From: Pseudomonadota bacterium
GTDB lineage: Bacteria; Pseudomonadota; Alphaproteobacteria; Caulobacterales; Hyphomonadaceae
Direction: 5' to 3'
Assembly (NCBI GenBank): GCA_039815055.1
Contig: JBCCAA010000026.1
Span: 1-32,000 of the forward strand
DNA: 32,000 nt
Shown: piece by piece, positions 3,531-29,389 of the stretch
How positions within the stretch are numbered: position 1 is the first letter of the stretch
Layout: every line of letters starts with the position of its first letter
Notes under the pieces: model-generated
Told to the model about the DNA's origin: nothing
The model's input: the letters and a program-made list of their open reading frames with translations, nothing else
Databases searched by the model: none
Program-made: the position numbers and the translations under genes

Positions 3531-4985
3531 ATGGCAAAGACAGTTCTCGTCGTCGATGACGATCCGACACAACGCCGCCTCCTGCAGGCAGCTGTTGAGA
3601 AAGCAGGCTTTGCTTGCCGCACGGCGCCAGATGGCGAGAGCGGATTTGCCATGGCAAGCGACCCGAAAGACGGTGTCGATGTGGTGCTGCTCGATCTCGT
3701 GATGCCGGGTCTTTCGGGGATGGAAACGCTGGAGCGACTGTCTGAGCGACGGCCAGACTTGCCCGTGGTTGTACTCACCGCCACCGGCGGCATCGACACG
3801 GTGGTGCAGTCCATGCGCGGAGGCGCGATCGACTTTTTCGTCAAGCCCGCCAGCCCCGAGCGGATCATCGTGTCGATCCGCAATGCGCTGAAAATGACGT
3901 CTCTTTCTGGTGAAGTGAAGCGCCTGTCGCGCAAGGCCGAAGGTGGAATGGGCTTTGAGGACATGATCGCGGCCGCCCCAGCCATGCGCTCTGTCGTGAA
4001 AATGGGCCAGCGCGCCGCGGCCAGCGACATCCCGGTGTTGATCCTGGGTGAAAGCGGTGTTGGTAAAGAAGTGATTGCCCGGTGCATCCAGGGCGCCAGC
4101 GACCGCGCTGGCAAACCCTTCGTCACGGTGAACTGCGGCGCCATCCCGGCAAACCTGGTCGAGAGCATCCTGTTTGGCCACGAGAAGGGCGCGTTCACCG
4201 GCGCCGTGTCGAAATCGCTCGGCAAGTTCGTTGAGGCCGATGGCGGCACACTGTTCCTGGACGAGATCGGCGAGCTGCCGCTCGACATGCAGGTCAAGCT
4301 GCTGCGCGCTCTGCAAGAGGGCGAAGTGGACGCCGTGGGCTCGCGCCGCCCAACCAAAGTGGATGTGCGCATCATCTCAGCCACGAACCGGGATCTGGCC
4401 CAACAGGTCAAAGACGGCACCTTCCGCGAAGACCTGTTCTATCGCCTCAACGTGTTCCCGGTGGACGTGCCGAGCCTGCGCGAGCGCCGCGAAGATGTAC
4501 CGGCTCTGGTCGAGCATTTCATCACCCGCTTTAACGCCGCTGAAGGCACGAAGATTGTCGGCGCGCGCGACGAAACGCTGAAACTGCTGTGTGCCTTTGA
4601 TTGGCCGGGCAATGTCCGCCAGCTCGAAAACTCAGTGTTTCGCGCCGTTGTGCTGTGCGAGGGCGACTGGCTGCGACCGGAAGACTTTCCGCAGATTTCA
4701 GGCGTTATGCCCGATCTCGATCTATTGCCAGATACGCCAGACCTGCCGATCCCCGCCAATGATACGGGGTCTGGCCCATCTGTCGGTGGCCCGGTGTCTG
4801 TGTTCGATGCAGACGGCGAGATGCGGACCCTGGAAGAGGTGGAACGCGATCTGCTGGAATTGGCTATCGAGCATTATGACGGCCATATGAGCGAGATCAG
4901 CCGCCGCCTGGGCATCGGCCGCTCCACGCTCTATCGCAAGGTCCGCGAATATGACCTGGCCGTGCGCGAACGCGAGGTGGGTTAG
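3531..4985 (+). CDS. Sigma-54-dependent response regulator (REC + AAA+ + Fis-type HTH), TacA-like
   Basis: Receiver domain VLVVDDDPTQRRLL...VVLLDLVMPG. Walker A GESGVGKE. An intact GAFTGA loop (GHEKGAFTGA), which is the sigma-54 contact. C-terminal HTH ISRRLGIGRSTLYRKV. The N-terminal 'VDDDPTQRRL' and the length (484 aa) match my recollection of Caulobacter TacA, but orthology is not verified. Confidence 0.9.
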   Translation: MAKTVLVVDDDPTQRRLLQAAVEKAGFACRTAPDGESGFAMASDPKDGVDVVLLDLVMPGLSGMETLERLSERRPDLPVVVLTATGGIDTVVQSMRGGAIDFFVKPASPERIIVSIRNALKMTSLSGEVKRLSRKAEGGMGFEDMIAAAPAMRSVVKMGQRAAASDIPVLILGESGVGKEVIARCIQGASDRAGKPFVTVNCGAIPANLVESILFGHEKGAFTGAVSKSLGKFVEADGGTLFLDEIGELPLDMQVKLLRALQEGEVDAVGSRRPTKVDVRIISATNRDLAQQVKDGTFREDLFYRLNVFPVDVPSLRERREDVPALVEHFITRFNAAEGTKIVGARDETLKLLCAFDWPGNVRQLENSVFRAVVLCEGDWLRPEDFPQISGVMPDLDLLPDTPDLPIPANDTGSGPSVGGPVSVFDADGEMRTLEEVERDLLELAIEHYDGHMSEISRRLGIGRSTLYRKVREYDLAVREREVG

Positions 4986-11616: not shown

Positions 11617-13326
11617 ATGCAGATCGCAGTACGACAGTCGTGTCTGTTGGCCGCCCTGGCGGTGGTTGGGTTTGCCCCGATGGCCCACGCCAATCGCGTG
11701 ACCTCCACGCTGGAGTTCCATGTTCTGGAATCTGTGGGTTACCCGTGGCAGCCCATCACCTTCGACAACAATTACACCGCGCCCGTGGTGGTCTGTTCTT
11801 ATGTGTTGGCCGACGAGAATGATCCGCCTGCAACGGTGCGCCTGAACAATGTCGGCCCTACGAGTGCGGACGTCCGTATCCAGCAGTTTGAAGATAGCAG
11901 CGTTGTGACAGCTGGAACCGTGTTCTGCATCGTGTCTGAAACCGGGGCCTATACCTTGCCCGGCGGGATGCAGTTTGAGGCGCGAACCGTGGTGTCCGAC
12001 GAGACCAGCAGCGGCTCAGGCGGTCAGGGCTGGAATCAGTCACGTCTGGAAAACATAACAGGAGACCTCACCCAGACGTACTCAAATCCCGTTCTTGTGG
12101 GTCAAGTGATGAGCTTCAACGATACGCTTGCGAGCGTGTTTCATGCCACCGATTGCGAACAGCGGCAAAACCGACCCTTCCAGGGCGGGTTCTCTGACGG
12201 CGCCTGCGTGGGCAAGCATATCGGTCAGATCAATGGCACCCGGGCGAGCGAAACCCTCGGCTATATGGTGATCGAAAATGGGACCGGAAATGCCAATAAC
12301 ATCTTCTGGCAAGCCGGGCGCACGGGCAACAATGTGGCAGGCACGGGCAACAACCCGCCCTACTCCAATTCCGTCAGTCGCGACTTTGATGCCGGTGTTG
12401 GCGCCATGGCGGGCGAAAATGGCGGCAATGGCGGCTGGTGGGTGTTCTACGGCGCTGACCCGTTGCCATCAGGCCAGATTAGCGGTGCCATTGAGGAAGA
12501 AACTGTGGCGGGGGACAGGTCTCGCAGTCACATCAATGAAGAGGTTAACTACTGGCTGTTTGAAGACAACAACGCCCCGGTTCTCACCCTCGACAAAACG
12601 GCGCCGGAGACCGATTTCGGTGAACTTGGTGAGGTCATCACGTTTTCCTATGAGATCGAGAATACCGGGAACGTCTCCATCTCTTCGATCACGCTGGATG
12701 ATGACCAGATCGGGGCGATCACCTGCCCCGCCACCACATTGGCGGCGAGCGCCAGCTTCACCTGCACCGCAGACTATACCGTCACCGCCGCTGACATCAC
12801 CGCCGGCAGCGTCACAAACATTGCCACGACCGATGGTGACCCAGACTTCGGAAAACTGGATGAGGCCACAGACACCTGGACGCTGACTTACGCCCCTGGG
12901 CCGGCCAATTTCACCGTGGAGAAGACGGTGGAATACGAGACGCCAGGCAGCTATTCCCTGCCCGGCGAAGACGTTATCTATCAGTTGGTGATCACCAATG
13001 AGGGCGAGAAATCGCCCGATGACGGTACGCTGTTCCTGGTCGATCAGTTGCCGCCGGAAGTGGCAATCTTTGGCGGTAATTTTGAAGCGTCTGGCGGGCC
13101 CGTTTCTTTTGCAGAGAGCGGGACGGGGCTTTCGGTGATCGGGTCAGGAACGATTGGGTTCTCCAGAAACACGGCGCGACCCGTGTCTATGCTGGACTGC
13201 GGTGAGACGCCGAGCGCGCCCTATGATGCGACGATCACCTACGTTTGCCTTGCGCCGTCCGGCACGTTTGCAGGCGCAAATCCTGATCCGAGTTTTACGA
13301 TCCGGTTCCAGGCGCGCCTGCAATGA
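11617..13326 (+). CDS. Large secreted protein with C-terminal DUF11-type 'conserved repeat' Ig-like domains
   Basis: Signal peptide MQIAVRQSCLLAALAVVGFAPMAHA. Two repeat-like modules follow: 'LTLDKTAPETDFGELGEVITFSYEIENTGNVSISSITLDD...CTADYTVTAADI' and 'FTVEKTVEY...GEDVIYQLVITNEG'. I do not recognise the N-terminal ~300 aa. Confidence 0.7.
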   Translation: MQIAVRQSCLLAALAVVGFAPMAHANRVTSTLEFHVLESVGYPWQPITFDNNYTAPVVVCSYVLADENDPPATVRLNNVGPTSADVRIQQFEDSSVVTAGTVFCIVSETGAYTLPGGMQFEARTVVSDETSSGSGGQGWNQSRLENITGDLTQTYSNPVLVGQVMSFNDTLASVFHATDCEQRQNRPFQGGFSDGACVGKHIGQINGTRASETLGYMVIENGTGNANNIFWQAGRTGNNVAGTGNNPPYSNSVSRDFDAGVGAMAGENGGNGGWWVFYGADPLPSGQISGAIEEETVAGDRSRSHINEEVNYWLFEDNNAPVLTLDKTAPETDFGELGEVITFSYEIENTGNVSISSITLDDDQIGAITCPATTLAASASFTCTADYTVTAADITAGSVTNIATTDGDPDFGKLDEATDTWTLTYAPGPANFTVEKTVEYETPGSYSLPGEDVIYQLVITNEGEKSPDDGTLFLVDQLPPEVAIFGGNFEASGGPVSFAESGTGLSVIGSGTIGFSRNTARPVSMLDCGETPSAPYDATITYVCLAPSGTFAGANPDPSFTIRFQARLQ

Positions 13327-14533: not shown

Positions 14534-14803
14534 ATGGACACTCAAAACGCCGCCCGGCCCCGCGTTGACGGCCCGAACGGGTCGCAACTGACCCTGGCTG
14601 ATTTACCGCCGGCAAACATTGGCCGCTGGGTCACGCGCCGAAAGGCTGAAGTGGTCGCCGCTGTGCAAGGTGGACTGATCAGCAAGGATGACGCCCTTTC
14701 ACGCTATGGCCTTTCCGATGAGGAATTTTCGGGCTGGCTGCGGCTTTATTCGGTGCATGGCTCGAAAGGCCTGCGCGCCACCCGGTTGCAGCAATACCGA
14801 TAG
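14534..14803 (+). CDS. sciP: SciP, CtrA-inhibitory transcription factor (DUF1153)
   Basis: MDTQNAARPRVDGPNGSQLTLADLPPANIGRWVTRRKAEVVAAVQGGLISKDDALSRYGLSDEEFSGWLRLYSVHGSKGLRATRLQQYR is near-colinear with Caulobacter SciP as I recall it (..GPDGSPLT.ADLPP..T.RWV.RRKAEVVAAV.GGL...LR.TR.QQYR). The listed 193-aa ORF is an upstream extension. Confidence 0.9.
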   Translation: MDTQNAARPRVDGPNGSQLTLADLPPANIGRWVTRRKAEVVAAVQGGLISKDDALSRYGLSDEEFSGWLRLYSVHGSKGLRATRLQQYR

Positions 14804-14905
14804 ACGATCAAGCCTCGGCAACAGTTATCGGTTAAGGCGCGATTTACCGCGTGCAGATACCACGGATGCAAGGCGCACTGATCGCGCCGCTCCGTGGAGT
14901 GCACC

Positions 14906-15562
14906 ATGTCGCCGCACGCATCGCGCCTGCGCCTTGAAGCTGAACTGTTGCGCCGCCTGTTGCTGGTGGCCAGTCTCTTTGTCCTGGCTGGCCTCGGCGC
15001 GTGGCGGGCGCAACAAAGCGTGTCGCCACCGCCTGCGCTGAGCAGTGAAACCGCCTCATTTGAAGAAAACCGGCTGACCCAACTACTTTCCACTGTGGCG
15101 GGTCCGGGCCAAAGTGAAGTTCGTTTGTCCCTGCGCGCTGATGACACCTGGTCGGTGCTGGTTCTAGTGAATTCTGAAAGCCCCGCGACGGAGCTTTCCG
15201 CCGACACGATCGAAACCCTGATCGGCTCAGCCTTCCCCCTTGACCCGATCTCGGGCGATGAGATCACGATACAGCGCGTCCCGTTTGCCCAGCCCGCGCC
15301 CGGCCAGTTTTCGCGCAAGGCCACGATAGAGCTGGCCGTCATCTGCCTTTGCGCCGGCCTGGTGGCCCTGGCTCTGATGATGCCCACCCGCCGACCGACA
15401 CCTGCCCACAGCGCCCCCGTTTCACCGCCTTCACCGACGATGCACGCGGCGATGTCTGCAGATGCGCCGCGCAATTTCGCTGCCCGCAGCGTGGAAGATG
15501 ACCCAGCCCGCGCCGCCCACATTGTGCGCCAATGGCTCAGACAGGGACCGGCTGACGCATGA
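14906..15562 (+). CDS. Miniature FliF-like protein: TM, single RBM3-like core, TM, FliG-binding-like tail (218 aa)
   Basis: GGAG lies 7 nt before ATG 14906. TM1 is LLRRLLLVASLFVLAGLGAW. The periplasmic ~100 aa read ENRLTQLLSTVAGPGQSEVRLSL..WSVLVLVN..LSADTIETLIGSAFPLDPISGDEITIQRVPF, an alpha-beta-beta-alpha-beta ring-building pattern like the two halves of FliF RBM3. TM2 is IELAVICLCAGLVALALMM. The C-terminus DDPARAAHIVRQWLRQ resembles the enterobacterial FliF tail (..DPRVVALVIRQWM..). Its stop overlaps the fliG start (ATGA). Confidence 0.6.
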   Translation: MSPHASRLRLEAELLRRLLLVASLFVLAGLGAWRAQQSVSPPPALSSETASFEENRLTQLLSTVAGPGQSEVRLSLRADDTWSVLVLVNSESPATELSADTIETLIGSAFPLDPISGDEITIQRVPFAQPAPGQFSRKATIELAVICLCAGLVALALMMPTRRPTPAHSAPVSPPSPTMHAAMSADAPRNFAARSVEDDPARAAHIVRQWLRQGPADA

Positions 15563-16530
15563 AGCAAGTTCGCGAACACGCCAATACTGGCCTGAGGGGC
15601 CGGTTTGGGCCCGACACCGCCGCCCATCTGATGCGGGCCTTGGGTGATGGCGCCGCACCCATCTGGTCTGAGTTGACAGCCGATGAGGCGCGCGCCATCA
15701 GCGATCACATGGACCGTCTGCCGACAGATAATCCGCATGCGGATCGCGATGCGTTGGAGTCCTTCCTGCGCGCGTCCATTGGTGCACGTCAACCCGGCAA
15801 GGTCGAGGCGGGCACTGATCTGGCTTCAAACACATCGGTGTGGACACGCCTCGGCGATGATCATGCTCCGATTCTTGCGGCCTTGCTGGGCCGTGAAAGC
15901 CCGCAAGTGGCCGCCTGGATGGTCAGCCAGATGGATCCAAAGCTGTCTGCAACCGTCCTGCGTATGCTGGAAGAAGATACCTCTTTGACCGTGCTGGAGC
16001 GCCTCCTGGAACTCAAGCCTCCTGCACCGCCCGTGGCCGAGATGATCGAAACCACGCTGGCAGATACACTCGATCGGGTTGCGACGGGCGCCGATGGCGC
16101 AGGTCACCAGCGTGTGGCGCGCATCTTCGACCAGATCGGAAGCCGCCATGAGCAATCCCTGCTCGCCGGTTTGGACGCCAAGGCACCGGGCTCCGGCGAA
16201 AAAGTCCGCGCACAGATGTTCACGTTCAATGATCTGGCGGGCCTCGGCGCGGCGGGCATGCAGACCCTACTTGCCGCCACCGACCGGGGCGTGCTGACGG
16301 TCGCCCTGAAAGGCGCCCGCGCGGACGTGGCCAACGTGTTTTTCTCAAACCTGACGCGCCGCGCCGGGCTGCTTATCCGTGAAGAACTTTCCGGTCTTGG
16401 TGCGCTTCGCCGCTCTGAAGTGGAAGAAGCGCGCGCTGAAATCGTTGAACTGGCCCGCCAGCTTATCCGCGGCGGTCAAATTCGGCTGGTGGGCGCCACC
16501 GCTGAAGATGATGATGAGCTGGTCGAATGA
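15559..16530 (+). CDS. fliG: Flagellar motor switch protein FliG
   Basis: All three FliG regions are recognisable. N: GPDTAAHLMRALGDGAAPIWSELTADEARAISDHM. Middle: ESPQVAAWMVSQMDPKLSATVLRML (the EHPQ-type motif). C: MFTFNDLAGL...LTVALKGA...FFSNLTRRAGLLIREEL...EVEEARAEIVELARQLIRGGQI. Confidence 0.88.
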   Translation: MKQVREHANTGLRGRFGPDTAAHLMRALGDGAAPIWSELTADEARAISDHMDRLPTDNPHADRDALESFLRASIGARQPGKVEAGTDLASNTSVWTRLGDDHAPILAALLGRESPQVAAWMVSQMDPKLSATVLRMLEEDTSLTVLERLLELKPPAPPVAEMIETTLADTLDRVATGADGAGHQRVARIFDQIGSRHEQSLLAGLDAKAPGSGEKVRAQMFTFNDLAGLGAAGMQTLLAATDRGVLTVALKGARADVANVFFSNLTRRAGLLIREELSGLGALRRSEVEEARAEIVELARQLIRGGQIRLVGATAEDDDELVE

Positions 16531-16925
16531 CAAAGCGGCGCATTTCAGACACCCGACCGTTTACGTTCCAGGCCGATTTTTCTTCGCCCGCTGGAGAAGA
16601 TCCGCGTGACAACAAACGCGCCGAGGACACGGCCTCTGAACTTGCCGCGCTTGGCGCAAAACTCCAGGCCGATGCGATTTCGAAGGTTCGAGACCCATTG
16701 GACGGGCTTGCTGCCGAGCGCCTCGACCACGCGATTGCCCGACTGGGCGACGCCTTGGACGCCTTTTCAACCCTGGCGGACCGGCTGGACGATTTGGCAC
16801 GGCAACAATATGTGCCCGGCAACCTTGCAGCGCCCGCTCGAAGTGCGGCGAAAGCCATCAGTGATGGCCAGGGCGATTTGTTTGCCCTCTGTCAATCATT
16901 GCGTGCGCAATCTTCTGGGGCCTGA
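16527..16925 (+). CDS. Hypothetical 132-aa protein occupying the flbE/fliH slot of a fliF-type operon
   Basis: ATGA overlap with the fliG stop. The sequence is Ala/Asp/Leu-rich and predicted helical (..ASELAALGAKLQADAISKV...LDAFSTLADRLDDLARQQ..). Assignment is by position only. I could not identify a FliH C-terminal (FliI-binding) domain. Confidence 0.45.
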   Translation: MTKRRISDTRPFTFQADFSSPAGEDPRDNKRAEDTASELAALGAKLQADAISKVRDPLDGLAAERLDHAIARLGDALDAFSTLADRLDDLARQQYVPGNLAAPARSAAKAISDGQGDLFALCQSLRAQSSGA

Positions 16926-16941
16926 CTGAAGCCCAAATCGA

Positions 16942-17214
16942 GTGACCATGACCCAAGCTGCCAATCCCGCCCTCGAACGCTCCCTGTTTGACGTGCCCGT
17001 GCGCGTGGACGTTGTCCTTGGAACGGTGCGCATGCCGATGGAAGAGCTTTTGTCGATGTCAGCCGGTGACGTCGTCGCGCTGGACGAGACCACGGGCCGG
17101 GATGTCGAGATCTATGTCTCAGACCGGCTTATGGCGCGCGGCCGCCTGGTGATTGCCGACGGAGAACTTGGTGTCACCCTGTCGGAAATCGTTGACGAAC
17201 GCCGCGCGGCCTAA
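16942..17214 (+). CDS. fliN: Flagellar motor switch protein FliN (SpoA domain only)
   Basis: [70 protein letters not shown] is a complete SpoA/FliN C-terminal domain. The start is GTG 16942 or ATG 16948. Confidence 0.85.
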
Positions 17215-17690
17215 CCAGCGTTCGGCGCGGACTGCAGCTGCGTATACTGCTCGATACCAATGCGCCCAATAAGGTCGAACTGGGTTTCCAGATAGTCGAC
17301 ATGTTCTTCCTCATTGGAGAGGATTTTCGCAAATAGATCGCGGGAAACATAATCGCGCTTCTTTTCGCTAAGTTCCACGGCATCGCGCAGCAGTGGCACG
17401 GCGTCATGTTCTAGCGCTAGATCACATTCCAGGATTTCTTTCACGCTCTCGCCAATGCGCAGTTTTCCGAGATCCTGCAGGTTGGGCAGGCCCTCGAGGA
17501 ACAAAATCCGCTCGATCAACCAATCGGCATGCTCCATTTCCTCGATCGATTCCTTGTACTCATACTCAGCCAGAATCGAGACGCCCCAGTCTTTCAGCAT
17601 TCGAGAATGCAGGAAATACTGGTTGATCGCGGTCAGCTCGTTTTTCAGCGCCGCATTGAGAAAGTTCAGGACTTCACTGTCGCCCTTCAT
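17211..17690 (-). CDS. bfr: Bacterioferritin
   Basis: [36 protein letters not shown]...[18 protein letters not shown]...[11 protein letters not shown] carries the ferroxidase-centre E/H residues and the heme Met context. The 3' end overlaps the fliN stop by 4 nt. Confidence 0.95.
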
Positions 17691-17812
17691 GGCCGGTACC
17701 CCGTGTTGGATTGTGATGGTAATGCACCTAGGACGGCCTGCACCTTAAGGCAAGAAAATTCAAATTAAACAGGGCGTTGTGAGATTGCAGAGCAGTCGCA
17801 ATTGCAAACGAA

Positions 17813-18013
17813 CTATTCCGCGGCCACCAGCACAGCGCCTTGGGTCAATTGGTGTTTTTCGCACTCAACGACGTCTTCCATTGCGCTTTTGCACTTGCCG
17901 CAGTTGAACTGGCAGCCAAAGTGGGCCTGCACCGCCTCGCCGCATCCCGCGCCGGCTCTTACGGCCTCGCGGACGGCGTCTTCATTTAAACGGCGGCAAA
18001 CGCAAATGATCAT
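17813..18013 (-). CDS. bfd: Bacterioferritin-associated ferredoxin (Bfd, [2Fe-2S])
   Basis: MIICVCRRLNEDAVREAV...GCQFNCGKCKSAMEDVV has the C-x-C...C-x2-C pattern. I start at ATG 18013 because the listed 111-aa ORF is an extension into the promoter. Confidence 0.88.
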   Translation of the reverse strand: MIICVCRRLNEDAVREAVRAGAGCGEAVQAHFGCQFNCGKCKSAMEDVVECEKHQLTQGAVLVAAE

Positions 18014-18021
18014 CGTTCTTA

Positions 18022-18051
18022 ATAACAAACTCAAATGAGAATGAATGTCAA
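18022..18051 (-). promoter_or_regulatory. Candidate bfd promoter with an embedded iron-box-like operator
   Basis: On the minus strand: TTGACA (18051-18046), an 18-nt spacer, then TGTTAT (18027-22), which ends 8 nt before ATG 18013. The spacer contains TGA-N9-TCA (plus strand 18036-18050, TGAGAATGAATGTCA). My hand alignment of it to the 19-bp E. coli Fur consensus scores 11/19. Confidence 0.35.
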
Positions 18052-18077
18052 CTGCGATGACACACTTTCTGCGAGCA

Positions 18078-18317
18078 CTACAGGGCGCCGACACTCGCAT
18101 TGTCATCGTCCCAGCCGAAGACATCCTCAAGCCCGACGCCAAATACACGGGAAATCCGGAAGGCGCTTTCCAGGCTGGGGGAATATTTCCCCTGCTCGAT
18201 AGCGATCACGGTCTGGCGCGTGACGCCAATGGCCTGGGCCAGGGCTGCCTGGCTCATCATGCCATGGGCTTCTCGCAACTCACGCACGCGATTGGTGATA
18301 GGTGGGCGTTTCGCCAT
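18078..18317 (-). CDS. Small XRE/Cro-C1-type HTH transcriptional regulator (79 aa)
   Basis: NRVRELREAHGMMSQAALAQAIGVTRQTVIAIEQGKYSPSLESAFRISRVFGVGLEDVF is a canonical HTH_3/HTH_26 pattern. The start overlaps the stop of the upstream membrane gene (ATGA). Confidence 0.88.
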   Translation of the reverse strand: MAKRPPITNRVRELREAHGMMSQAALAQAIGVTRQTVIAIEQGKYSPSLESAFRISRVFGVGLEDVFGWDDDNASVGAL

Positions 18318-18763
18318 CAGGCTTGCCCGCGGCGGTAAAACAAGATCGTCAATATGTAGTCCGCAAGCTGGCTCACCACGAGGCCGAACACGACCAGGTG
18401 GAACAGCAGATCGCCATACTCCAGCACGGCATAGGCCGAAATCGCAGCAATGGTGATGACGCCGAACAAAAGCCCCGCCAAATTGCCGGCCCGCCAGGCA
18501 ATTACTCGATCGCGCTCGTCTTGAGGTGAGTTTGCATCGGTTGGATTGCCCAACGCCGCAAAAGCGTGCCCGAAGATTGCCAACGCAACGAGCGGGATTG
18601 TGACCACAACAGCCAGCCCGATATTGGGTGGCGGCGGATGGCCCAGCAGCATGGTCTGTTGAGTGACGACATATCCGTAAAACCCGCCGGTCAACGTCAA
18701 TGCCACCGCCATGATCCAGGCGCTCTTCTCGCGAAATCCCATAATCGACTCCATGTAAAACAT
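18317..18763 (-). CDS. Four-TM membrane protein co-transcribed with the XRE regulator (DUF2178-like arrangement)
   Basis: There are four hydrophobic segments: AWIMAVALTLTGGFYGYVV, IGLAVVVTIPLVALAIFGHAF, LAGLLFGVITIAAISAYAV and LLFHLVVFGLVVSQLADYILTILF. The start is ATG 18763 or ATG 18742. Confidence 0.7.
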   Translation of the reverse strand: MFYMESIMGFREKSAWIMAVALTLTGGFYGYVVTQQTMLLGHPPPPNIGLAVVVTIPLVALAIFGHAFAALGNPTDANSPQDERDRVIAWRAGNLAGLLFGVITIAAISAYAVLEYGDLLFHLVVFGLVVSQLADYILTILFYRRGQA

Positions 18764-22465: not shown

Positions 22466-23449
22466 ATGAGTGAGGCGCTTACCCCAACCGTTAACAGACT
22501 GCGTGCCGCGGGCGAGCCGACACGCCTGCGAATTCTCGCGCTTTTGAGGTGCGGTGATCTCGCGGTTGGGGAGCTGGTCGACATTCTTGGCCTCAGCCAA
22601 CCGCGCCTGTCACACCAGCTGAAAGTGCTCACAAATGCCGGTTTGGTGACCCGTTTGCCGGAAGGGGCATGGGTGTTCTATCGGGCCAAAACCAAGGGAC
22701 CGTGCGCTGACCTTATCAACCTGGCTCTATCGCAAGCTGATCTCGAAAACAGCGTGTTTTTGAAGGATCGTCGGCAATTACAGGTGGTTTTAGATGACCG
22801 GGCCTCATCGGCCGCCTCCTATTTTGACTCCATCGCAGCCCATTGGGATGCCGAGCGCGCGCTGCATTATCCTGAAAGTGCCATCGAAGCCGCCATTCTC
22901 GAGATTGTGGGCGATGGACCGTTTGATCAGATTGTTGACCTCGGCACGGGCACTGGCCGGATACTGTCCCTGCTCGCGCCCCGGGCGAGGCAAGCCGAAG
23001 GGTTGGATCTGAGCCATCAGATGCTGACAGTGGCCCGAAGCAACCTTCTCAAAGCGGGGGTGACCAACGCCAATGTTCGTCATGGAGATGCGTGCATGGT
23101 GCCTTTCGAGGCATCCAGTGTTGATCTCGTGATCATTCATCAGGTGCTTCACTTTATCGTGAGACCAGCCCTGGCCATCGAAGAAGCTGCGCGGATCCTG
23201 CGCCCGGGCGGCCGTTTGGTGATCGTGGATTTTGCCCCGCACATGCTGGAGTTTCTGCGCAGCGACCACGGCCACCGCAGATTGGGCGTGGCTGATGAAG
23301 CGCTCGGAGAGTGGGCGCGCGGAACGGGGCTAACCTTCCGGCCCGTCAGACACTTCGAATCTCCCACAGAAACGGCAGGACTCGCCGTGAAAATCTGGAC
23401 GGCCCAACAGCCGACCGCCAACTTTCCGCAAAAAGAGGCTGCCGCATGA
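22466..23449 (+). CDS. ArsR/SmtB-type HTH fused to a class-I SAM-dependent methyltransferase domain
   Basis: N-terminal: EPTRLRILALLRCGDLAVGELVDILGLSQPRLSHQLKVLTNAGLV (ArsR HTH). C-terminal: VDLGTGTGRIL (SAM motif I) ...LRPGGRLVIVDF. Confidence 0.85.
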   Translation: MSEALTPTVNRLRAAGEPTRLRILALLRCGDLAVGELVDILGLSQPRLSHQLKVLTNAGLVTRLPEGAWVFYRAKTKGPCADLINLALSQADLENSVFLKDRRQLQVVLDDRASSAASYFDSIAAHWDAERALHYPESAIEAAILEIVGDGPFDQIVDLGTGTGRILSLLAPRARQAEGLDLSHQMLTVARSNLLKAGVTNANVRHGDACMVPFEASSVDLVIIHQVLHFIVRPALAIEEAARILRPGGRLVIVDFAPHMLEFLRSDHGHRRLGVADEALGEWARGTGLTFRPVRHFESPTETAGLAVKIWTAQQPTANFPQKEAAA

Positions 23450-24366
23450 GCAGATTGTCCGTCGCGCAGGCCCAGACGGCCAAGGCCCCAGACGTGTCCT
23501 TCGAGTTCTTCCCGCCGAAAACCGAAACCATGTCGGCAAGGCTCTGGGAGTGTGTGCGCCGCCTTGAGCCCATGTCGCCGCGCTTTGTGTCGGTGACGTA
23601 TGGCGCAGGCGGGTCCACGCGCGAACGCACCCATGACACAGTTCGCCGGCTTGCCGGTGAAACCACGCTCACGCCGGCGGCCCACCTCACCTGCGTCGGC
23701 GCAACCAAGGCAGACGTCCACGAGGTTGCAGAGGAATACTGGCAGGCCGGCGTCAAACACATCGTGGCCTTGCGCGGCGACAGCCAGGACGGCATGGGCG
23801 AGCCTTTCAAACCTCATCCCGGCGGCTATTCCGGCTCCGTTGAACTGGTTGCAGGTCTTCGCGCGCACCGCCCCGACCTCGGCAAAGTGTTTGAGGTGTC
23901 AGTTGCGTGCTACCCGGAGCAACACCCCGACAGCCGGGGCTGGGGCGGCGACATGGATGTTCTCAAGGCCAAACAGGATGCCGGGGCGGACCGGGCCATC
24001 ACGCAGTTTTTCTTTGAGCCGGACACATATTTCCGCTTTCTCGACCGTGTCCATGCCGCCGGGATCACCCTGCCGATCGTGCCGGGCATCATGCTACAAT
24101 CCAATTTCAAAGGGCTGCAGAAGATATCGAAACTCTGCAACGCGAACCTGCCAGACTGGCTGTGCACACTTTATGACGGGCTGGATGAAGACGACACGAT
24201 GCGCGACCTCATCACCGCCAATGTGGCTGCAGAACTCTGCCACCGTCTGGCGGAACAGGGCGTCGATGCGTTCCATTTCTACACGCTGAACCGGGCCAAT
24301 CTGGCACTTTCGACGTGCCACCTTCTGGGTCTCAAACCCGCACCAGTGCGCGAGGAGGCGGCGTGA
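23446..24366 (+). CDS. metF: 5,10-methylenetetrahydrofolate reductase
   Basis: VSFEFFPPKT...FVSVTYGAGGSTRERT...AHLTCVG...ALRGD...AITQFFF. ATG 23446 overlaps the upstream stop (ATGA). Confidence 0.92.
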   Translation: MSRLSVAQAQTAKAPDVSFEFFPPKTETMSARLWECVRRLEPMSPRFVSVTYGAGGSTRERTHDTVRRLAGETTLTPAAHLTCVGATKADVHEVAEEYWQAGVKHIVALRGDSQDGMGEPFKPHPGGYSGSVELVAGLRAHRPDLGKVFEVSVACYPEQHPDSRGWGGDMDVLKAKQDAGADRAITQFFFEPDTYFRFLDRVHAAGITLPIVPGIMLQSNFKGLQKISKLCNANLPDWLCTLYDGLDEDDTMRDLITANVAAELCHRLAEQGVDAFHFYTLNRANLALSTCHLLGLKPAPVREEAA

Positions 24367-25394
24367 TGGCGTCAATTCTGGAGCAACTTTCAGCGGAAGC
24401 CGAACGCCGTGTCCTGATCCTCGATGGTGCCATGGGCACACAGATTCAGGGCTTTGATTTTGATGAGGCCGCCTTTCGTGGCGAACGGTTTGCCGATTGG
24501 GGAAGGCCGCTCAAAGGCAATAATGATCTCCTGAACCTCACCCAGCCCGGCGCCATTCGCGCGATCCATGAGCGCTATATCGAGGCTGGCGCCGACCTGA
24601 TCGAAACCAATACGTTCAGCGCCACAACCATCGCCATGGCCGATTATGGCATGGAAGCTGAGGCCGATGACATAGCCGCCGAAGGGGCCCGGCTGGCGCG
24701 TGAAGCGGCTGATGCTTCGGGCCGCGCGGTTGCTGTGCTTGGCGCCATCGGGCCCACCAACAAGACCCTGTCCCTGAGCCCCGATGTGAACGACCCCGGC
24801 TTTCGAGAAGTGACGTTTGAAGATGTCCGCACGGCCTATGAAGCCCAGGTTCGGGCCATGGCACCGTTTGTTGATGCCTTGCTGATCGAAACGGTGTTCG
24901 ACACGCTGAATGCGAAAGCGGCGATAAAAGCGATTATTGACGCTGATTTGGGTTTGCCGATGATCATTTCCGGCACGATCACCGATGCGTCGGGTCGCAC
25001 GCTGTCCGGCCAGACAGCCGAAGCCTTCTGGTATTCGGTGCGCCACGCGCGGCCTTGGGCTGTGGGGTTGAACTGCGCGCTCGGCGCCGAGGCCATGCGC
25101 CCGCACATCGCGGCCATCTCCAAGATCGCCAATACGCGCATCATCGCTTACCCCAATGCGGGACTGCCGAACGCGTTTGGGGAGTATGATGAAACCCCGG
25201 ATGAGACATCGGCCATGCTGGGCGAGTGGGCAGCCGCTGGCCTGGTCAACATCCTCGGCGGCTGTTGTGGCACCACGCCAGACCATATCGAGGCGATCAC
25301 CAAAGCGGCCGCGGGCAAAGCGCCGCGGACGATTCCAAACCCCGCCGCGGCCATGCGTCTGTCCGGCCTCGAACCGTTTGAACTCGCCAGTTAG
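24366..25394 (+). CDS. metH: Methionine synthase, homocysteine-binding (Hcy S-methyltransferase) domain as a separate polypeptide
   Basis: [13 protein letters not shown]...LNLTQP...IETNTF. Both zinc-ligand contexts are present: GLNCALGA and [12 protein letters not shown]. The protein ends at the Hcy/pterin linker. ATG 24366 overlaps the metF stop (TGATG). Confidence 0.9.
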
Positions 25395-25404
25395 GAGCCG
25401 CGCC

Positions 25405-25959
25405 ATGGGCAAGACCTACGACCACCTCACCGACAAACTGGTTGAGTTTATCTCCGCCCAGAAAATGTTCTTCGTGGCGACCGCCCCGCTGTCGGGCGAC
25501 GGCCATGTGAATGTCAGCCCCAAGGGCTATGACGCATTCAAGATCATTGATCCGCTGACCGTTGCTTATCTCGACACGGGCGGCAGCGGCATCGAAACCC
25601 AGGCCCACGCCATCGAGAATGGCCGGGTCACGCTGATGTTTTGCGCCTTTGAAGGCGCGCCGCTGATCGTCCGGCTTTATGGCACCGCCACGGTGACCCA
25701 ATGGGATGAGCCAGGCTTTGCTGATTTGCTGGCGCTGTTTCCCGATTTCGAGAAAGCGCGCGGCGTGTTCACGATCAAGCTGCATCGCATCACCGATAGC
25801 TGCGGTTGGGGCGTGCCGTTCTATGATTTCCACGGCGAGCGCGACCAGCTCAAACGGTTCGCCACAAATCCGAATAAATCCCCCGAAGACTGGGCCGAGA
25901 AATGGCGCACCGGAAACGCGGTCAGTATCGATGGCCTGCCCGGCATCCGACAGCACTAG
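25405..25959 (+). CDS. Pyridoxamine-5'-phosphate-oxidase-like (FMN-binding split-barrel) family protein
   Basis: MGKTYDHLTDKLVEFISAQKMFFVATAPLSGDGHVNVSPKG...GRVTLMFCAF is typical of the PNPOx-like split-barrel family. An AGGAG RBS overlaps the metH-N stop. Confidence 0.75.
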   Translation: MGKTYDHLTDKLVEFISAQKMFFVATAPLSGDGHVNVSPKGYDAFKIIDPLTVAYLDTGGSGIETQAHAIENGRVTLMFCAFEGAPLIVRLYGTATVTQWDEPGFADLLALFPDFEKARGVFTIKLHRITDSCGWGVPFYDFHGERDQLKRFATNPNKSPEDWAEKWRTGNAVSIDGLPGIRQH

Positions 25960-25965
25960 GCCGCC

Positions 25966-26409
25966 ATGTCGCTTCCCTCCGTCTCAAAGGGCGATGCCTT
26001 CATCTTCTACGGCCTGTTGAAACAGGGCGCTGCGGGTATGCCAGGTCATATCGACTTGGAAACCGCCGGAACGTTTGAACACCCGTGCCGGTTTCGCGCA
26101 AAGATGTACGATTTGGGCGGCTTTCCGGGCGTGGTGGCCGGAGATACGCTCTGCCACGGCGTTATCTGGCGGATTAAGGATGTGTCCGTGTTGGCCGAAC
26201 TGGACGATTTTGAAGACGTCGTGCCCGGCAATCGCGAAAGATCGGTCTACTGGCGCGATACATGGCCAGTCCGTGACGATATGGGCACTGCAACCGGCGA
26301 AACTGCGCAGATTTACGTGTACCGTGCATCCCTCGAGGACTGGCCCCGGGTCGCAGATGGCAATTGGCCGCTCGGCAAAGGGCGCAGCCGGAAAATGGGA
26401 GATGTGTGA
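25966..26409 (+). CDS. Gamma-glutamylcyclotransferase / AIG2-like (GGACT) family protein
   Basis: FIFYGLLKQG...MYDLGGFPGVV...HGVIWRI...LAELDDFEDV is the YGxL...G.YP...E pattern of the GGCT-like fold. Confidence 0.7.
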   Translation: MSLPSVSKGDAFIFYGLLKQGAAGMPGHIDLETAGTFEHPCRFRAKMYDLGGFPGVVAGDTLCHGVIWRIKDVSVLAELDDFEDVVPGNRERSVYWRDTWPVRDDMGTATGETAQIYVYRASLEDWPRVADGNWPLGKGRSRKMGDV

Positions 26410-26759
26410 TGACTTATGTTGATGGATTTGTGCTGGCTGTGCCGACAGCCAACAAGCAGGCTTATCTCGACCATGCCAGGGATTGCGTGCCGATCTTCAA
26501 GAAATACGGCGCGCTGCGTTGCGTTGAAAACTGGGGCGTTGATGTGCCCGATGGTGAGACAACATCGTTTCCCATGGCGGTGAAGGCCGAGCCCGGCGAG
26601 ACTGTCATGTTCTCGTGGATCGTCTGGCCCTCAAAAGAAGCACGTGACACCGGCATGGAAGCGCTGATGAAAGACCCCTTCTTTGCCCAGGACATGGACA
26701 TGCCGTTTGACGGCAAACGCATGATTTTCGGCAGTTTCGAGACGATTTTGGACGCCTAA
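26409..26759 (+). CDS. DUF1428-family small protein
   Basis: [43 protein letters not shown]...[13 protein letters not shown]...[13 protein letters not shown] matches my recollection of DUF1428. The start overlaps the upstream stop (TGATG). Confidence 0.7.
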
Positions 26760-29389
26760 TGACCACAACCACCGCCACCTTCGTCAATATTGGCGAACGC
26801 ACCAACGTGACCGGTTCGGCACGCTTCAAGAAGCTCATCCTCAACGGGGATTACCCCGCAGCCGTCGAGGTGGCCCGCCAGCAGGTGGAAAACGGCGCCC
26901 AGATCATTGATGTGAACATGGATGAGGGGATGCTGGACGGCGCCGTGGCCATGACCACATTCCTGAATCTCATCGCCGCCGAGCCCGACATCGCCCGTGT
27001 GCCGGTGATGGTCGACAGCTCCAAATGGGAGGTGATCGAGGCCGGCCTGAAATGCGTGCAAGGCAAGGCGGTGGTGAACTCGATCTCCCTGAAAGAAGGC
27101 GAGGAGAGTTTCATCAAACAGGCGCGCACCTGCATGGCCTATGGCGCAGCGGTAGTGGTGATGGCGTTTGACGAGGATGGCCAGGCCGACACGGCGCCGC
27201 GCAAGATCGAAATCTGTCAGCGCGCCTATGAAATTTTGACGAAAACGGTTGGAATCGAGCCTGAAGACGTCATTTTCGACCCGAATATCTTCGCCGTCGC
27301 GACCGGCATCGAAGAGCACAACACCTACGCCCTCGACTTTATAGAGGCCGCGCGGGAGATCCGCCGAACCTGCCCTGGCGCCCACATTTCCGGTGGCTTG
27401 TCGAACATCAGCTTCAGCTTTCGCGGCAATGAGCCTGTGCGCCGGGCCATGCATTCGGTGTTTCTGTATCACGCCATTCCGGCGGGCATGGATATGGGCA
27501 TCGTCAATGCTGGCCAGCTGGACATCTATGACGAGATCGAGCCAGACCTGCGCGAGCGGGTTGAGGATGTAATCCTGAACCGCTCAGACAATGCCACAGA
27601 CCGCCTGATCGAGATTGCCGAGAAATTTCGAGGCCAAAAGGGCAAAACGGCGGAGAAAGACACGAAATGGCGCGAATTGGCGGTCGAAGCCCGGCTTCAA
27701 CACGCCCTCGTCAACGGCATTCTCGACCATATCGTGGAGGATACCGAAGAGGCCCGCCAAACCCGCGAGCGTCCGCTGCATGTCATCGAAGGCCCGCTCA
27801 TGGACGGGATGAATGTGGTCGGCGACCTGTTCGGGTCCGGCAAGATGTTCCTGCCCCAGGTGGTGAAATCGGCCCGCGTCATGAAGGCCGCTGTGGCCCA
27901 TCTTGAACCCTTCATGGAAGAGGAAAAACAGCGCATGGGGCTGGTTGATCAGTCCAATGGCAAGATTGTTCTCGCCACGGTGAAGGGCGATGTCCACGAC
28001 ATCGGCAAGAACATTGTTGGCGTCGTGCTGGCCTGTAACGGCTACGATATTCTCGATCTGGGTGTCATGGTGCCGGCCGAGAAAATCTTGCAGACAGCCC
28101 TGGAAGAGGGCGCGGACATGGTCGGCTTGTCCGGCCTGATCACGCCGTCGCTGGATGAAATGGTCTATGTCGCCGCCGAGATGGAACGGCGCGGCATGCA
28201 TATGCCCCTGCTGATCGGCGGGGCGACCACCAGCCCGGCCCATACGGCAGTAAAGATCGAACCGGTCTACGATCGCGGTCCGGTCATCCATGTCACGGAT
28301 GCGTCGCGCGCGGTGGGCACCGTTGGCGCGCTGATGAGTGATGAGGAGCGTCCGGCTTATTGGGAGGCCGCCAAGGCGCGCTATCAACGCATGCGTGACG
28401 ACCGAGCCGGCGCTAAGACGAAACCGCGCCTGCCACTCGAAAAGGCACGTGAAAACGCTTTTTCAGCGGGGGAATCGCCATCTGCGCCCCCACCGAGCTT
28501 CACAGGGGTGCGCACGTTTGACGATTTTGATCTGGCCGAACTCACCCAATACATCGACTGGACCCCCTATTTCGCAAGCTGGGATCTGGCGGGCCGCTTC
28601 CCACAAATTCTGGACGATGAGGTGGTCGGCGTCGCAGCAACAGACTTGTGGGCGGAGACCCAGGCCATGCTGCAGCGGATCATCGGCGAGCAGTGGTTCA
28701 AACCCAAGGCCGTGATCGGCTTCTGGGGCGCACGGCCCGATGGCGACGACATCCAGCTGGAAACAGGCGGTCGCCTCCACACCTTGCGCCAGCAGATCGT
28801 GAAAACCAATGAAAAGCCGAACTTCGCCCTTTCCGACTTTCTTTCCGCCGACGACGATCACATCGGTGCGTTTTGCGTCACGTCGGGGCCCGAAGCCGAT
28901 GTGTTGGCCAAGGAATTTGAGGCCGCGGGCGATGACTACCAGGCCATTATGGTGAAGGCTCTGGCCGACCGGTTTGCCGAGGCCATGGCCGAGATGATGC
29001 ATGCGCGCGTGCGACGCGAACTGTGGGGTTATGCGGCAGATGAAGGTCTCGATAATGAGGCGCTGATCAAGGAAAAATACCGTGGCATCCGCCCCGCGCC
29101 CGGCTATCCGGCCCAGCCCGATCACACGGAAAAAGAATTGATATTCAAACTGCTAGAAGCTGAAGATCGCATTGGCGTGTCGCTGACCACCAGTTTCGCC
29201 ATGGACCCGGCGCCCAGCGTGTCAGGGCTCTATTTCGCTCACCCGGACAGCGTCTATTTCGCCGTCGGCCGGATCGAGCGCGACCAGATCGCCGACTATG
29301 CCGCCAGAAAGGGCTGGGACATGCGCACCACCGAACGCTGGCTCGCACCGATCCTGAACTATGACCCTTATGCGCGGGAGGCGGGGTAG
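26759..29389 (+). CDS. metH: Methionine synthase, pterin-binding + B12-binding + AdoMet-activation domains
   Basis: It starts at the pterin domain ([20 protein letters not shown]). The cobalamin motifs are [10 protein letters not shown] (DxHxxG), SGLITPS and LLIGGATTS. The activation domain shows [15 protein letters not shown] 26759 overlaps the upstream TAA (TAATG). Confidence 0.95.

Follow-up and report, generated by a model that had tools for sequence, protein, structure and literature searches.

A 32-kb window of Hyphomonadaceae DNA (positions 1 to 32,000 of contig JBCCAA010000026.1, the whole stretch analyzed here) carries a cut-down flagellar module next to the gene sciP. Five co-directional genes in the open reading frame (ORF) list for 14534–17214, sciP, mini-fliF, fliG, mini-fliH and fliN, make up the locus. 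Comparison with other alphaproteobacteria shows it to be an apparent reduced descendant of the class-II locus sciP-fliF-fliG-fliH-fliN-flbD-flhA-flhF-flhG ... ctrA. The component families and the locus type are known; the novelty is that the cut-down architecture is consistent across the lineage and exists side by side with a full set of flagellar genes. Our preferred reading, to which we assign a rough probability of 45%, is that the membrane protein, FliG and FliN would form an export-less scaffold working with FlhF and FlhG.

The module is compact and translationally coupled. sciP (14534–14803, on the plus strand like the genes that follow) encodes an 89-aa protein that both NCBIfam (NF051866 CtrAInhibSciP, 122 bits, cut-off 100) and Pfam (DUF1153, E = 1e-34) identify as the CtrA inhibitor SciP. 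A 102-bp spacer leads to mini-fliF (14906–15562, 218 aa), followed by fliG (15559–16530, 323 aa), mini-fliH (16527–16925, 132 aa) and fliN (16942–17214), whose product has 90 aa if it starts at GTG 16942 and 88 aa if it starts at ATG 16948. Read directly from the sequence, ATGA start/stop overlaps join the genes at 15559–15562 and 16527–16530, and the stop codons of fliN and the convergent bfr overlap as CTAA at 17211–17214. Pfam scans of the remaining ORFs judged to be genes, about 12 of which had no Pfam match, detected no other flagellar family in the window: no flhA, flhB, fliPQR, fliI or fliM, and no rod, hook or filament genes. The initial annotation of this DNA had described the same anatomy, a Caulobacter-like gene order, both ATGA couplings, the 4-nt overlap with bfr and the lack of further flagellar genes, and all of this stands on direct reading, the ORF list, the Pfam and NCBIfam scans and the canonical loci.

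Mini-FliF is clearly derived from FliF on profile evidence, yet fails membership of FliF proper. Against Pfam YscJ_FliF_C it scores 20.5 bits, below the 23.8 cut-off, with residues 86–131 on profile positions 100–147. A word-index search with the 218-aa protein returned two relatives; an exhaustive HMMER search (phmmer) against 1.84e9 representatives, used instead, returned a family of 83 clusters at 50% identity, nearly all 205–235 aa long and aligned end to end, with a 554-aa protein as the single long match. Almost all of the 30 family members that were looked up are proteins from metagenome-assembled genomes (MAGs). The family profile matches Salmonella FliF (6scn) at E = 8.8e-7. Its positions 86–222 correspond to FliF 396–559, spanning the end of RBM3, the second transmembrane helix (TM2) and the DPRVVALVIRQWM tail, and a weak second match places positions 48–75 on FliF 241–268, the first RBM3 helix and strand. 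In the family profile the C-tail DPARAAHIVRQWL aligns with Salmonella DPRVVALVIRQWM. Aligning the family with 24 canonical alphaproteobacterial FliFs in hhalign gives a probability of 97.9% and E = 4.6e-13. The FliF-like character that the initial annotation gave this gene is therefore borne out by profile searches, Pfam alone staying below its cut-off.

Mini-FliF appears to be FliF minus RBM1, RBM2 and the beta-collar. Across a 62-sequence alignment the family has an N-terminal transmembrane helix (TM1), about 100 periplasmic residues, TM2, a proline-rich linker and a C-terminal motif. The periplasmic part follows the pattern LLExVxGxGxVRV ... LVLxD ... GDxLT...FA, and the C-terminal DPxxAAxxxRxW is invariant, including R208 and W210. 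Neither Pfam nor NCBIfam gave a match for the YscJ_FliF region (RBM1 plus RBM2) in mini-FliF; its FliF alignments reach the C-terminal third alone, and its periplasmic part comprises no more than ~100 residues. The AlphaFold2 (AF2) model, with a mean predicted local distance difference test (pLDDT) score of 75 and ~90 in the periplasmic RBM domain, runs from TM1 through an alpha-beta-beta-alpha-beta domain to TM2, after which come a disordered linker and a pair of C-terminal helices. The flanking transmembrane helices are AF2 helices 3–38 and 137–157, and the C-terminal helices are the putative FliG-binding tail. No collar segment is present, beta1 and beta2 having just a short hairpin between them, and the RBM3 core is supported by both the profile matches and the AF2 fold. 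Foldseek places the model nearest to PrgK domain 2, EscJ and FliF RBM3/collar, all weakly (E ~1e-2). Mini-FliF shares its periplasmic fold with these top matches, the single-RBM proteins SctJ/PrgK/EscJ of secretion and sporulation systems; unlike them, it has homology specific to FliF RBM3 and the FliF C-tail, has no lipobox and carries the putative FliG-binding tail. A 297-aa protein annotated 'FliF' on a 61.9-kb JGI contig (P0069/P0100) matches mini-FliF 85–212 with its residues 169–294, and may be an intermediate truncation stage or a different domain fusion.

The second gene (15559–16530) encodes a FliG paralogue with a shortened N domain. It exceeds the Pfam cut-offs for all three FliG domains (FliG_N 32.4, FliG_M 48.4 and FliG_C 96.2 bits), and its AF2 model matches full-length Salmonella and Aquifex FliG in Foldseek at E = 1e-11. 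The original call of a FliG was right, with the qualification that the N domain is short: Pfam FliG_N is matched at profile positions 4–60 of 104, and three confident helices (residues 18–75) give way to a disordered linker at 77–91. The protein scores 108 bits against the NCBIfam equivalog TIGR00207, below its cut-off of 227. Module FliGs measure 304–325 aa, and 12–14 of 14 keep the core of EHPQR, the FliM-binding motif of FliG (E113, P115, Q116 and R148), and the torque-helix charges (R268, E275, E276 and R284). At the EHPQR histidine the window FliG has serine, and canonical alphaproteobacterial FliGs have tyrosine.

The third protein, of 132 aa (16527–16925), is by profile alignment the N-terminal half of FliH. 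It belongs to no Pfam family and meets the NCBIfam FliH model PRK06032 weakly, at positions 4–87 of 205 (E = 0.002). Ten homologues share an invariant N-terminal PFxFxSDF (an FxFxxDF motif), which corresponds to the aromatic FliN-binding motif of FliH, ahead of a helical, coiled-coil body. Canonical FliHs (n = 22) were taken from other alphaproteobacteria as the products of the gene that separates fliG from fliN; hhalign matches the family to them at 95.5% and E = 1.5e-8, pairing columns 7–113 with 7–117 of 231 and PFxFxSDF with the canonical N-terminus KFTFDTxF. The C-terminal domain of FliH binds FliI. No such domain was found in mini-FliH, whose alignment ends at canonical column 117 of 231 and whose chain ends at 132 aa. 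A profile search of the family against the PDB returned designed helical bundles only. The helical 'unknown' of the initial annotation is therefore helical as described, and no longer unknown. The fourth gene product, FliN, had been described as a bare SpoA domain, in agreement with its 71.9 bits against Pfam FliMN_C; against TIGR02480 it reaches 78.9 bits, just under the 84.05 cut-off.

The module recurs in related genomes with different surroundings. We scanned GTDB species genomes with a module-FliG alignment, the taxonomic range among the matches listed being a lower bound, and mapped neighboring genes with hidden Markov models (HMMs) and phmmer on six-frame ORFs. The closest among the matches listed, at 40–47% FliG identity, are Hyphomonas sp. 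L-53-1-40, H. oceanitis and Henriciella mobilis, together with several Hyphomonas, Henriciella and Hyphomonadaceae MAGs. The gene order repeats in at least 14 independent loci with differing flanks, metagenome contigs included, so the arrangement is not due to chance. Most of the 14 encode sciP, a ~220-aa FliF, fliG, a FliH-N of ~120–150 aa and fliN; one contig starts inside fliG. In nine of them there follow an flhF-like gene for an SRP54-type GTPase, a minD/flhG-like ATPase gene and ctrA, the response regulator of one (L007) scoring 409 bits against the CtrA model (cut-off 350). The locus L087, 65–66% identical to the window in FliG, has the window's LpxR-sciP-module-bfr arrangement. An operon that ends without flbD and runs into bfr, as the initial annotation had it, thus holds for the window; most relatives instead continue into flhF, flhG and ctrA, which it had missed. 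Two loci, on a MAG chromosome of 3.2 Mb and on a related contig (L005:12164–15072 and L006:12160–15070), have two extra genes between mini-fliH and fliN. The first encodes a BON+OmpA-domain protein of 399–403 aa whose peptidoglycan-binding C-terminus is like those of MotB, MotY and Pal, the second a ~560-aa coiled-coil protein; both may be module-specific periplasmic or structural partners.

Canonical loci disclose what the module has lost. At least about 45 alphaproteobacterial loci have sciP-fliF-fliG-fliH-fliN with FliF of 517–581 aa and FliH of ~200–250 aa; the ~70 remaining loci listed in the scan are canonical, with sciP upstream of fliF in most, as it is in the module loci. The mini-FliF HMM matches the full-length FliFs of canonical loci at 22–50 bits. 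Many have a gap of ~3.5 kb after fliN and then flhF, flhG and sometimes ctrA. In Parvibaculum sedimenti this gap holds flbD (813 bits) and flhA (FHIPEP, 888 bits), with flhF and flhG next. The module resembles the canonical class-II operons of Parvibaculum, Bradyrhizobium, Rhizomicrobium, Kordiimonas and Sneathiella in its sciP neighbor, gene order, TTAA-N7-TTTA spacer box and homologues at every position. It differs from them in a FliF of 218 aa versus 517–581, a FliH of 132 aa versus ~200–250, the lack of flbD and flhA, and faster evolution of FliG and FliF. In Caulobacter, the class-II operon fliF-fliG-fliH(flbE)-fliN-flbD beside sciP corresponds to CC_0903–0909.

The losses appear selective for parts related to export, a pattern that the initial annotation had missed. 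In solved structures of the membrane-supramembrane (MS) ring, it is RBM1, RBM2 and the beta-collar that encircle the rod and export gate. These three FliF elements, the FliH C-terminal domain, flbD and flhA are the export-linked parts missing from the Hyphomonas/Henriciella and window lineages. Kept are two FliF transmembrane helices, the RBM3 core and the predicted FliG-binding tail, the FliG motif and torque charges, the FliH aromatic motif, and FliN. A canonical locus also occurs in a Hyphomonadaceae-labelled genome, MAG-151 (L027:7803–17026), with sciP, a 542-aa FliF, fliG, a 213-aa FliH, fliN and, later, an flhG-like gene. Genomes with that label thus do not all show the reduction, and this locus could help to date the module deletions.

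Motile relatives in culture carry the module beside a normal flagellar set. In motile H. neptunium the canonical cluster includes HNE_0241 (fliL), HNE_0242 (fliF), HNE_0243 (hypothetical), HNE_0244 (fliN) and HNE_0245 (fliP) (PMC7200025), as well as HNE_0246 (putative fliG), motB, motA, fliI, flgB, flgC, fliE and fliQ (Leicht et al. 2020, PMC7200025). HNE_0242 spans ~160 ten-bp bins (~1.6 kb), that is, a full-length fliF, and is the best match of Caulobacter CC_0905 at 32% identity and 70% coverage (PMC7200025). Separate from this cluster lie HNE_1390 (sciP), HNE_1391 (hypothetical), HNE_1392 ('putative FliG') and HNE_1393 (hypothetical); HNE_1391–1393 are transcribed and rise slightly in a divJ deletion (log2 0.6–1.1, p 0.10–0.23) (PMC7200025). 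HNE_1390–1393 match the module seen in congeneric genomes, which points to a second set in a motile genus. Together with the loci of L-53-1-40, H. oceanitis and Henriciella mobilis they resemble the window in gene order and in profile scores for mini-FliF (172–215 bits) and FliG (340–403 bits). Unlike the window with its convergent bfr, the Hyphomonas/Henriciella loci have flhF-like, flhG-like and ctrA genes after fliN, and their FliGs share the 40–47% identity given above. Beyond table entries, the module genes did not turn up in literature searches that looked in Hyphomonadaceae for a short FliF, a second FliG or sciP-fliF.

Because relatives have the module next to a normal flagellar set, its task is probably something other than construction of the flagellum core. 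The initial annotation had offered three options, the first being that these genes are the real class-II operon, the organism's only source of MS-ring and cytoplasmic-ring (C-ring) proteins, with a flagellum built on a radically short FliF. Intact frames, translational coupling and a class-II-type promoter box would suit such an operon, as would synteny that holds down to ~65% FliG identity. However, the domains that enclose the export gate and rod are the ones deleted here, mini-FliH lacks the FliI-binding half, relatives with the module have full-length FliF elsewhere, and the FliF and FliG of the module change more quickly than canonical ones do. We regard this option as improbable, and the full-length fliF listed elsewhere in H. 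neptunium leaves it unsupported in relatives.

Selection on the module is purifying and uneven across its genes. We estimated omega by the Nei-Gojobori method (NG86) on H. oceanitis and a Hyphomonas MAG, the pair with the least saturation (dS ~0.9–1.1), obtaining 0.32 for mini-FliF, 0.20 for FliG, 0.29 for FliH-N and 0.03 for FliN, the most conserved of the four; dS is saturated for most pairs, making omega rough, and for the window against its nearest relatives this saturation makes dN/dS unusable. Neighbors in the same pair give 0.06 (FlhF), 0.02 (FlhG), 0.03 (CtrA) and 0.05 (SciP). Where FliN identity is ~0.83, module FliG is 0.52 and mini-FliF 0.38 identical, against canonical loci with FliG at 0.81 for FliN at 0.82 and FliF at 0.61. 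By FliG domain, mean pairwise identity in module versus canonical proteins is 0.40 versus 0.76 for M, 0.39 versus 0.54 for N and 0.61 versus 0.72 for C, the drop in constraint being greatest in M and N and smallest in C. Between the window and L087, neighboring housekeeping genes are 80–94% identical, compared with 66% for FliG, 70% for FliH-N and 46% for mini-FliF. The pattern shows that three of the four, mini-FliF, FliG and FliH-N, are under purifying selection that is seemingly relaxed or altered, which is at odds both with a main rotor and with neutral decay.

A decaying, functionless remnant of a replaced flagellar system is, accordingly, very improbable in our estimate. Such a remnant would explain the progressive loss of parts from an ancestral locus, the relaxed constraint on mini-FliF, FliG and FliH-N, and the lack of the flhF-flhG-ctrA tail in the window lineage. 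It is at odds with frames that are open in all 14 module loci and with 83 mini-FliF clusters that are nearly all full length, with omega of 0.2–0.3 rather than ~1, with invariant contact residues, with start/stop coupling that has been maintained, and with transcription of the genes in H. neptunium (PMC7200025). The relic put forward as the second initial option is thus half right: the locus looks like a reduced descendant of an ancestral one, and simple decay is contradicted by genes that are intact under purifying selection. The accompanying argument, that intact frames and coupling speak against simple decay, gains from the open frames and the omega values.

The module FliG, FliN and FliH-N might instead be accessory parts of one true motor, entering or acting on the basal body built by the canonical cluster, for example as rotor subunits of an alternative kind, as chaperones of its assembly or as a brake, with mini-FliF merely tethering or delivering FliG and forming no separate ring. 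This is a possibility that we rate as doubtful. It draws on a FliG that retains the EHPQR core and four main torque-helix charges and has FliG_C as its best-conserved domain, on a module FliN as conserved as canonical FliN, on flhF and flhG, which are needed for polar flagella elsewhere, being co-encoded, and on the lack of a module fliM, whereby FliM must be shared with the canonical set. Yet the H. neptunium canonical cluster has its own fliF, fliG and fliN, fast evolution of FliG_M and FliG_N (0.40 versus 0.76 and 0.39 versus 0.54) is unexpected for a subunit of the canonical rotor, and there would be no need for a membrane anchor of the module's own bearing a conserved ring-building domain.

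The spacer between sciP and mini-fliF holds a likely promoter element. A CtrA-box-like TTAA-N7-TTTA at 14832–14846 (plus strand), ~60 bp before the mini-fliF start codon, is the sole match to TTAA-N7-TTAA with at most one mismatch in the 32 kb. A box within the same tolerance occupies this spacer in 12 of 12 module loci, 11 of them as TTAA-N7-TTTA. Of the 44 canonical sciP-fliF spacers, 31 hold such a match, with TTTA again as the second half in many. The box looks like the ancestral CtrA-type class-II promoter; direct CtrA control is not confirmed by the H. neptunium data (PMC7200025). Henriciella-type loci have a second CtrA-like box, TGAA-N7-TTAA, just upstream of sciP (L009:8822, L012:8825, L014:8761), which is absent from the window.

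We infer an export-less scaffold that works with FlhF and FlhG, and two precedents speak for it. In other bacteria FliF/FliG is captured by FlhF at the pole, and C-ring proteins are binding partners of FlhG (PMC12826062); in C. jejuni, FlhG acts on cell division together with proteins of the MS ring and the switch, beyond motility (PMC3228812). The module shares the protein types FliF, FliG, FliN, FlhF and FlhG with these placement and polar division systems (PMC12826062, PMC3228812). Unlike them, with their complete basal body, it is a separate cut-down set whose interaction with FlhF/FlhG is putative. In the proposed mechanism, the genes would be expressed from the CtrA-type class-II promoter next to sciP. 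Mini-FliF would sit in the inner membrane and oligomerize by means of its one ring-building domain, with the C-terminal helices holding FliG under the membrane, and FliN and mini-FliH would dock to each other. The outcome would be a ring or patch with neither rod nor export apparatus, the cognate partner of FlhF and FlhG, that might influence flagellar position and number or a polar cell-cycle event. A paralogous FliF/FliG/FliN scaffold had been the third initial option, and it is favored here by the module in Hyphomonas/Henriciella and the full set elsewhere in H. neptunium, while the function is what we infer.

Several observations weigh against this scaffold. The conserved torque-helix charges suggest retained stator contact and fit a working rotor better than a passive scaffold. 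HNE_1391–1393 are absent both from the direct CtrA targets in H. neptunium chromatin immunoprecipitation sequencing (ChIP-seq) tables and from the genes changed 2.5-fold on CckA/ChpT depletion (PMC7200025). flhF, flhG and ctrA are not adjacent to the module in the window or in the locus L002, and a FliG–FliN link would need a FliM encoded elsewhere, there being no fliM in the module; the saturation of dS noted above adds to these. A tentative alternative, possible at most, is a pseudo-basal body with neither rod nor export, in which an RBM3-only mini MS-ring with a FliG ring in contact with stator and FliM would have been repurposed as a cell-cycle-timed polar device acting with FlhF/FlhG in flagellar placement, budding or division control, or else as an axle-less rotor. 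In lineages such as that of the window, which no longer have flhF, flhG and ctrA next to it, this device might function apart from any flagellum. A 'hat-like' structure related to the type III secretion system of the flagellum (PMC9380563) was considered as a counterpart and rejected; it depends on FlhA and occurs in many species not known to carry the module.

Elsewhere in the window, Pfam identifies thiC, an NtrC-like regulator, a Cys/Met pyridoxal phosphate (PLP) enzyme, an acyl-CoA ligase, an esterase and DnaJ, and further LpxR, bfr/bfd, a class-I lysyl-tRNA synthetase (LysRS), MlaA/C, MTHFR and a split methionine synthase. The sigma-54 response regulator at 3531–4985 (plus strand, 484 aa) was considered as a displaced flbD and rejected, with 338 bits against the FlbD cut-off of 750; its best score is NtrC (417 bits), ahead of NtrX (344). 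A compact minus-strand block at 17211–18763 abuts fliN and encodes bfr, bfd (Fer2_BFD), a small HTH_3 regulator and a DUF2178 membrane protein. Between DnaJ and LpxR, a 569-aa protein (11617–13326, plus strand) has an N-terminal segment predicted to be signal-like and carries a DUF7507/CLIPPER_2 repeat; it is missing from the otherwise syntenic L087, which makes it a lineage-specific insertion. The methionine-cycle genes at 23311–29389 (plus strand) are split and interleaved. MTHFR (23311–24366) overlaps a stand-alone homocysteine S-methyltransferase domain gene (24315–25394), followed by PNPOx-like, GGACT and DUF1428 genes and then an 876-aa protein with pterin-binding, B12-binding and activation domains; the arrangement looks like a two-part MetH.

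The module appears to record an intermediate stage in the turnover of alphaproteobacterial flagellar loci. With type III export parts gone and ring-contact and polar-positioning parts kept, a scaffold role would have been separated from the secretion role. H. neptunium, a genetically tractable model, carries the module (HNE_1390–1393 and the downstream genes). If the proteins form a structure of their own, it would be a minimal natural MS/C-ring, and would inform what an RBM3-only ring needs, how a FliF tail templates FliG and what it is that FlhF and FlhG recognize.

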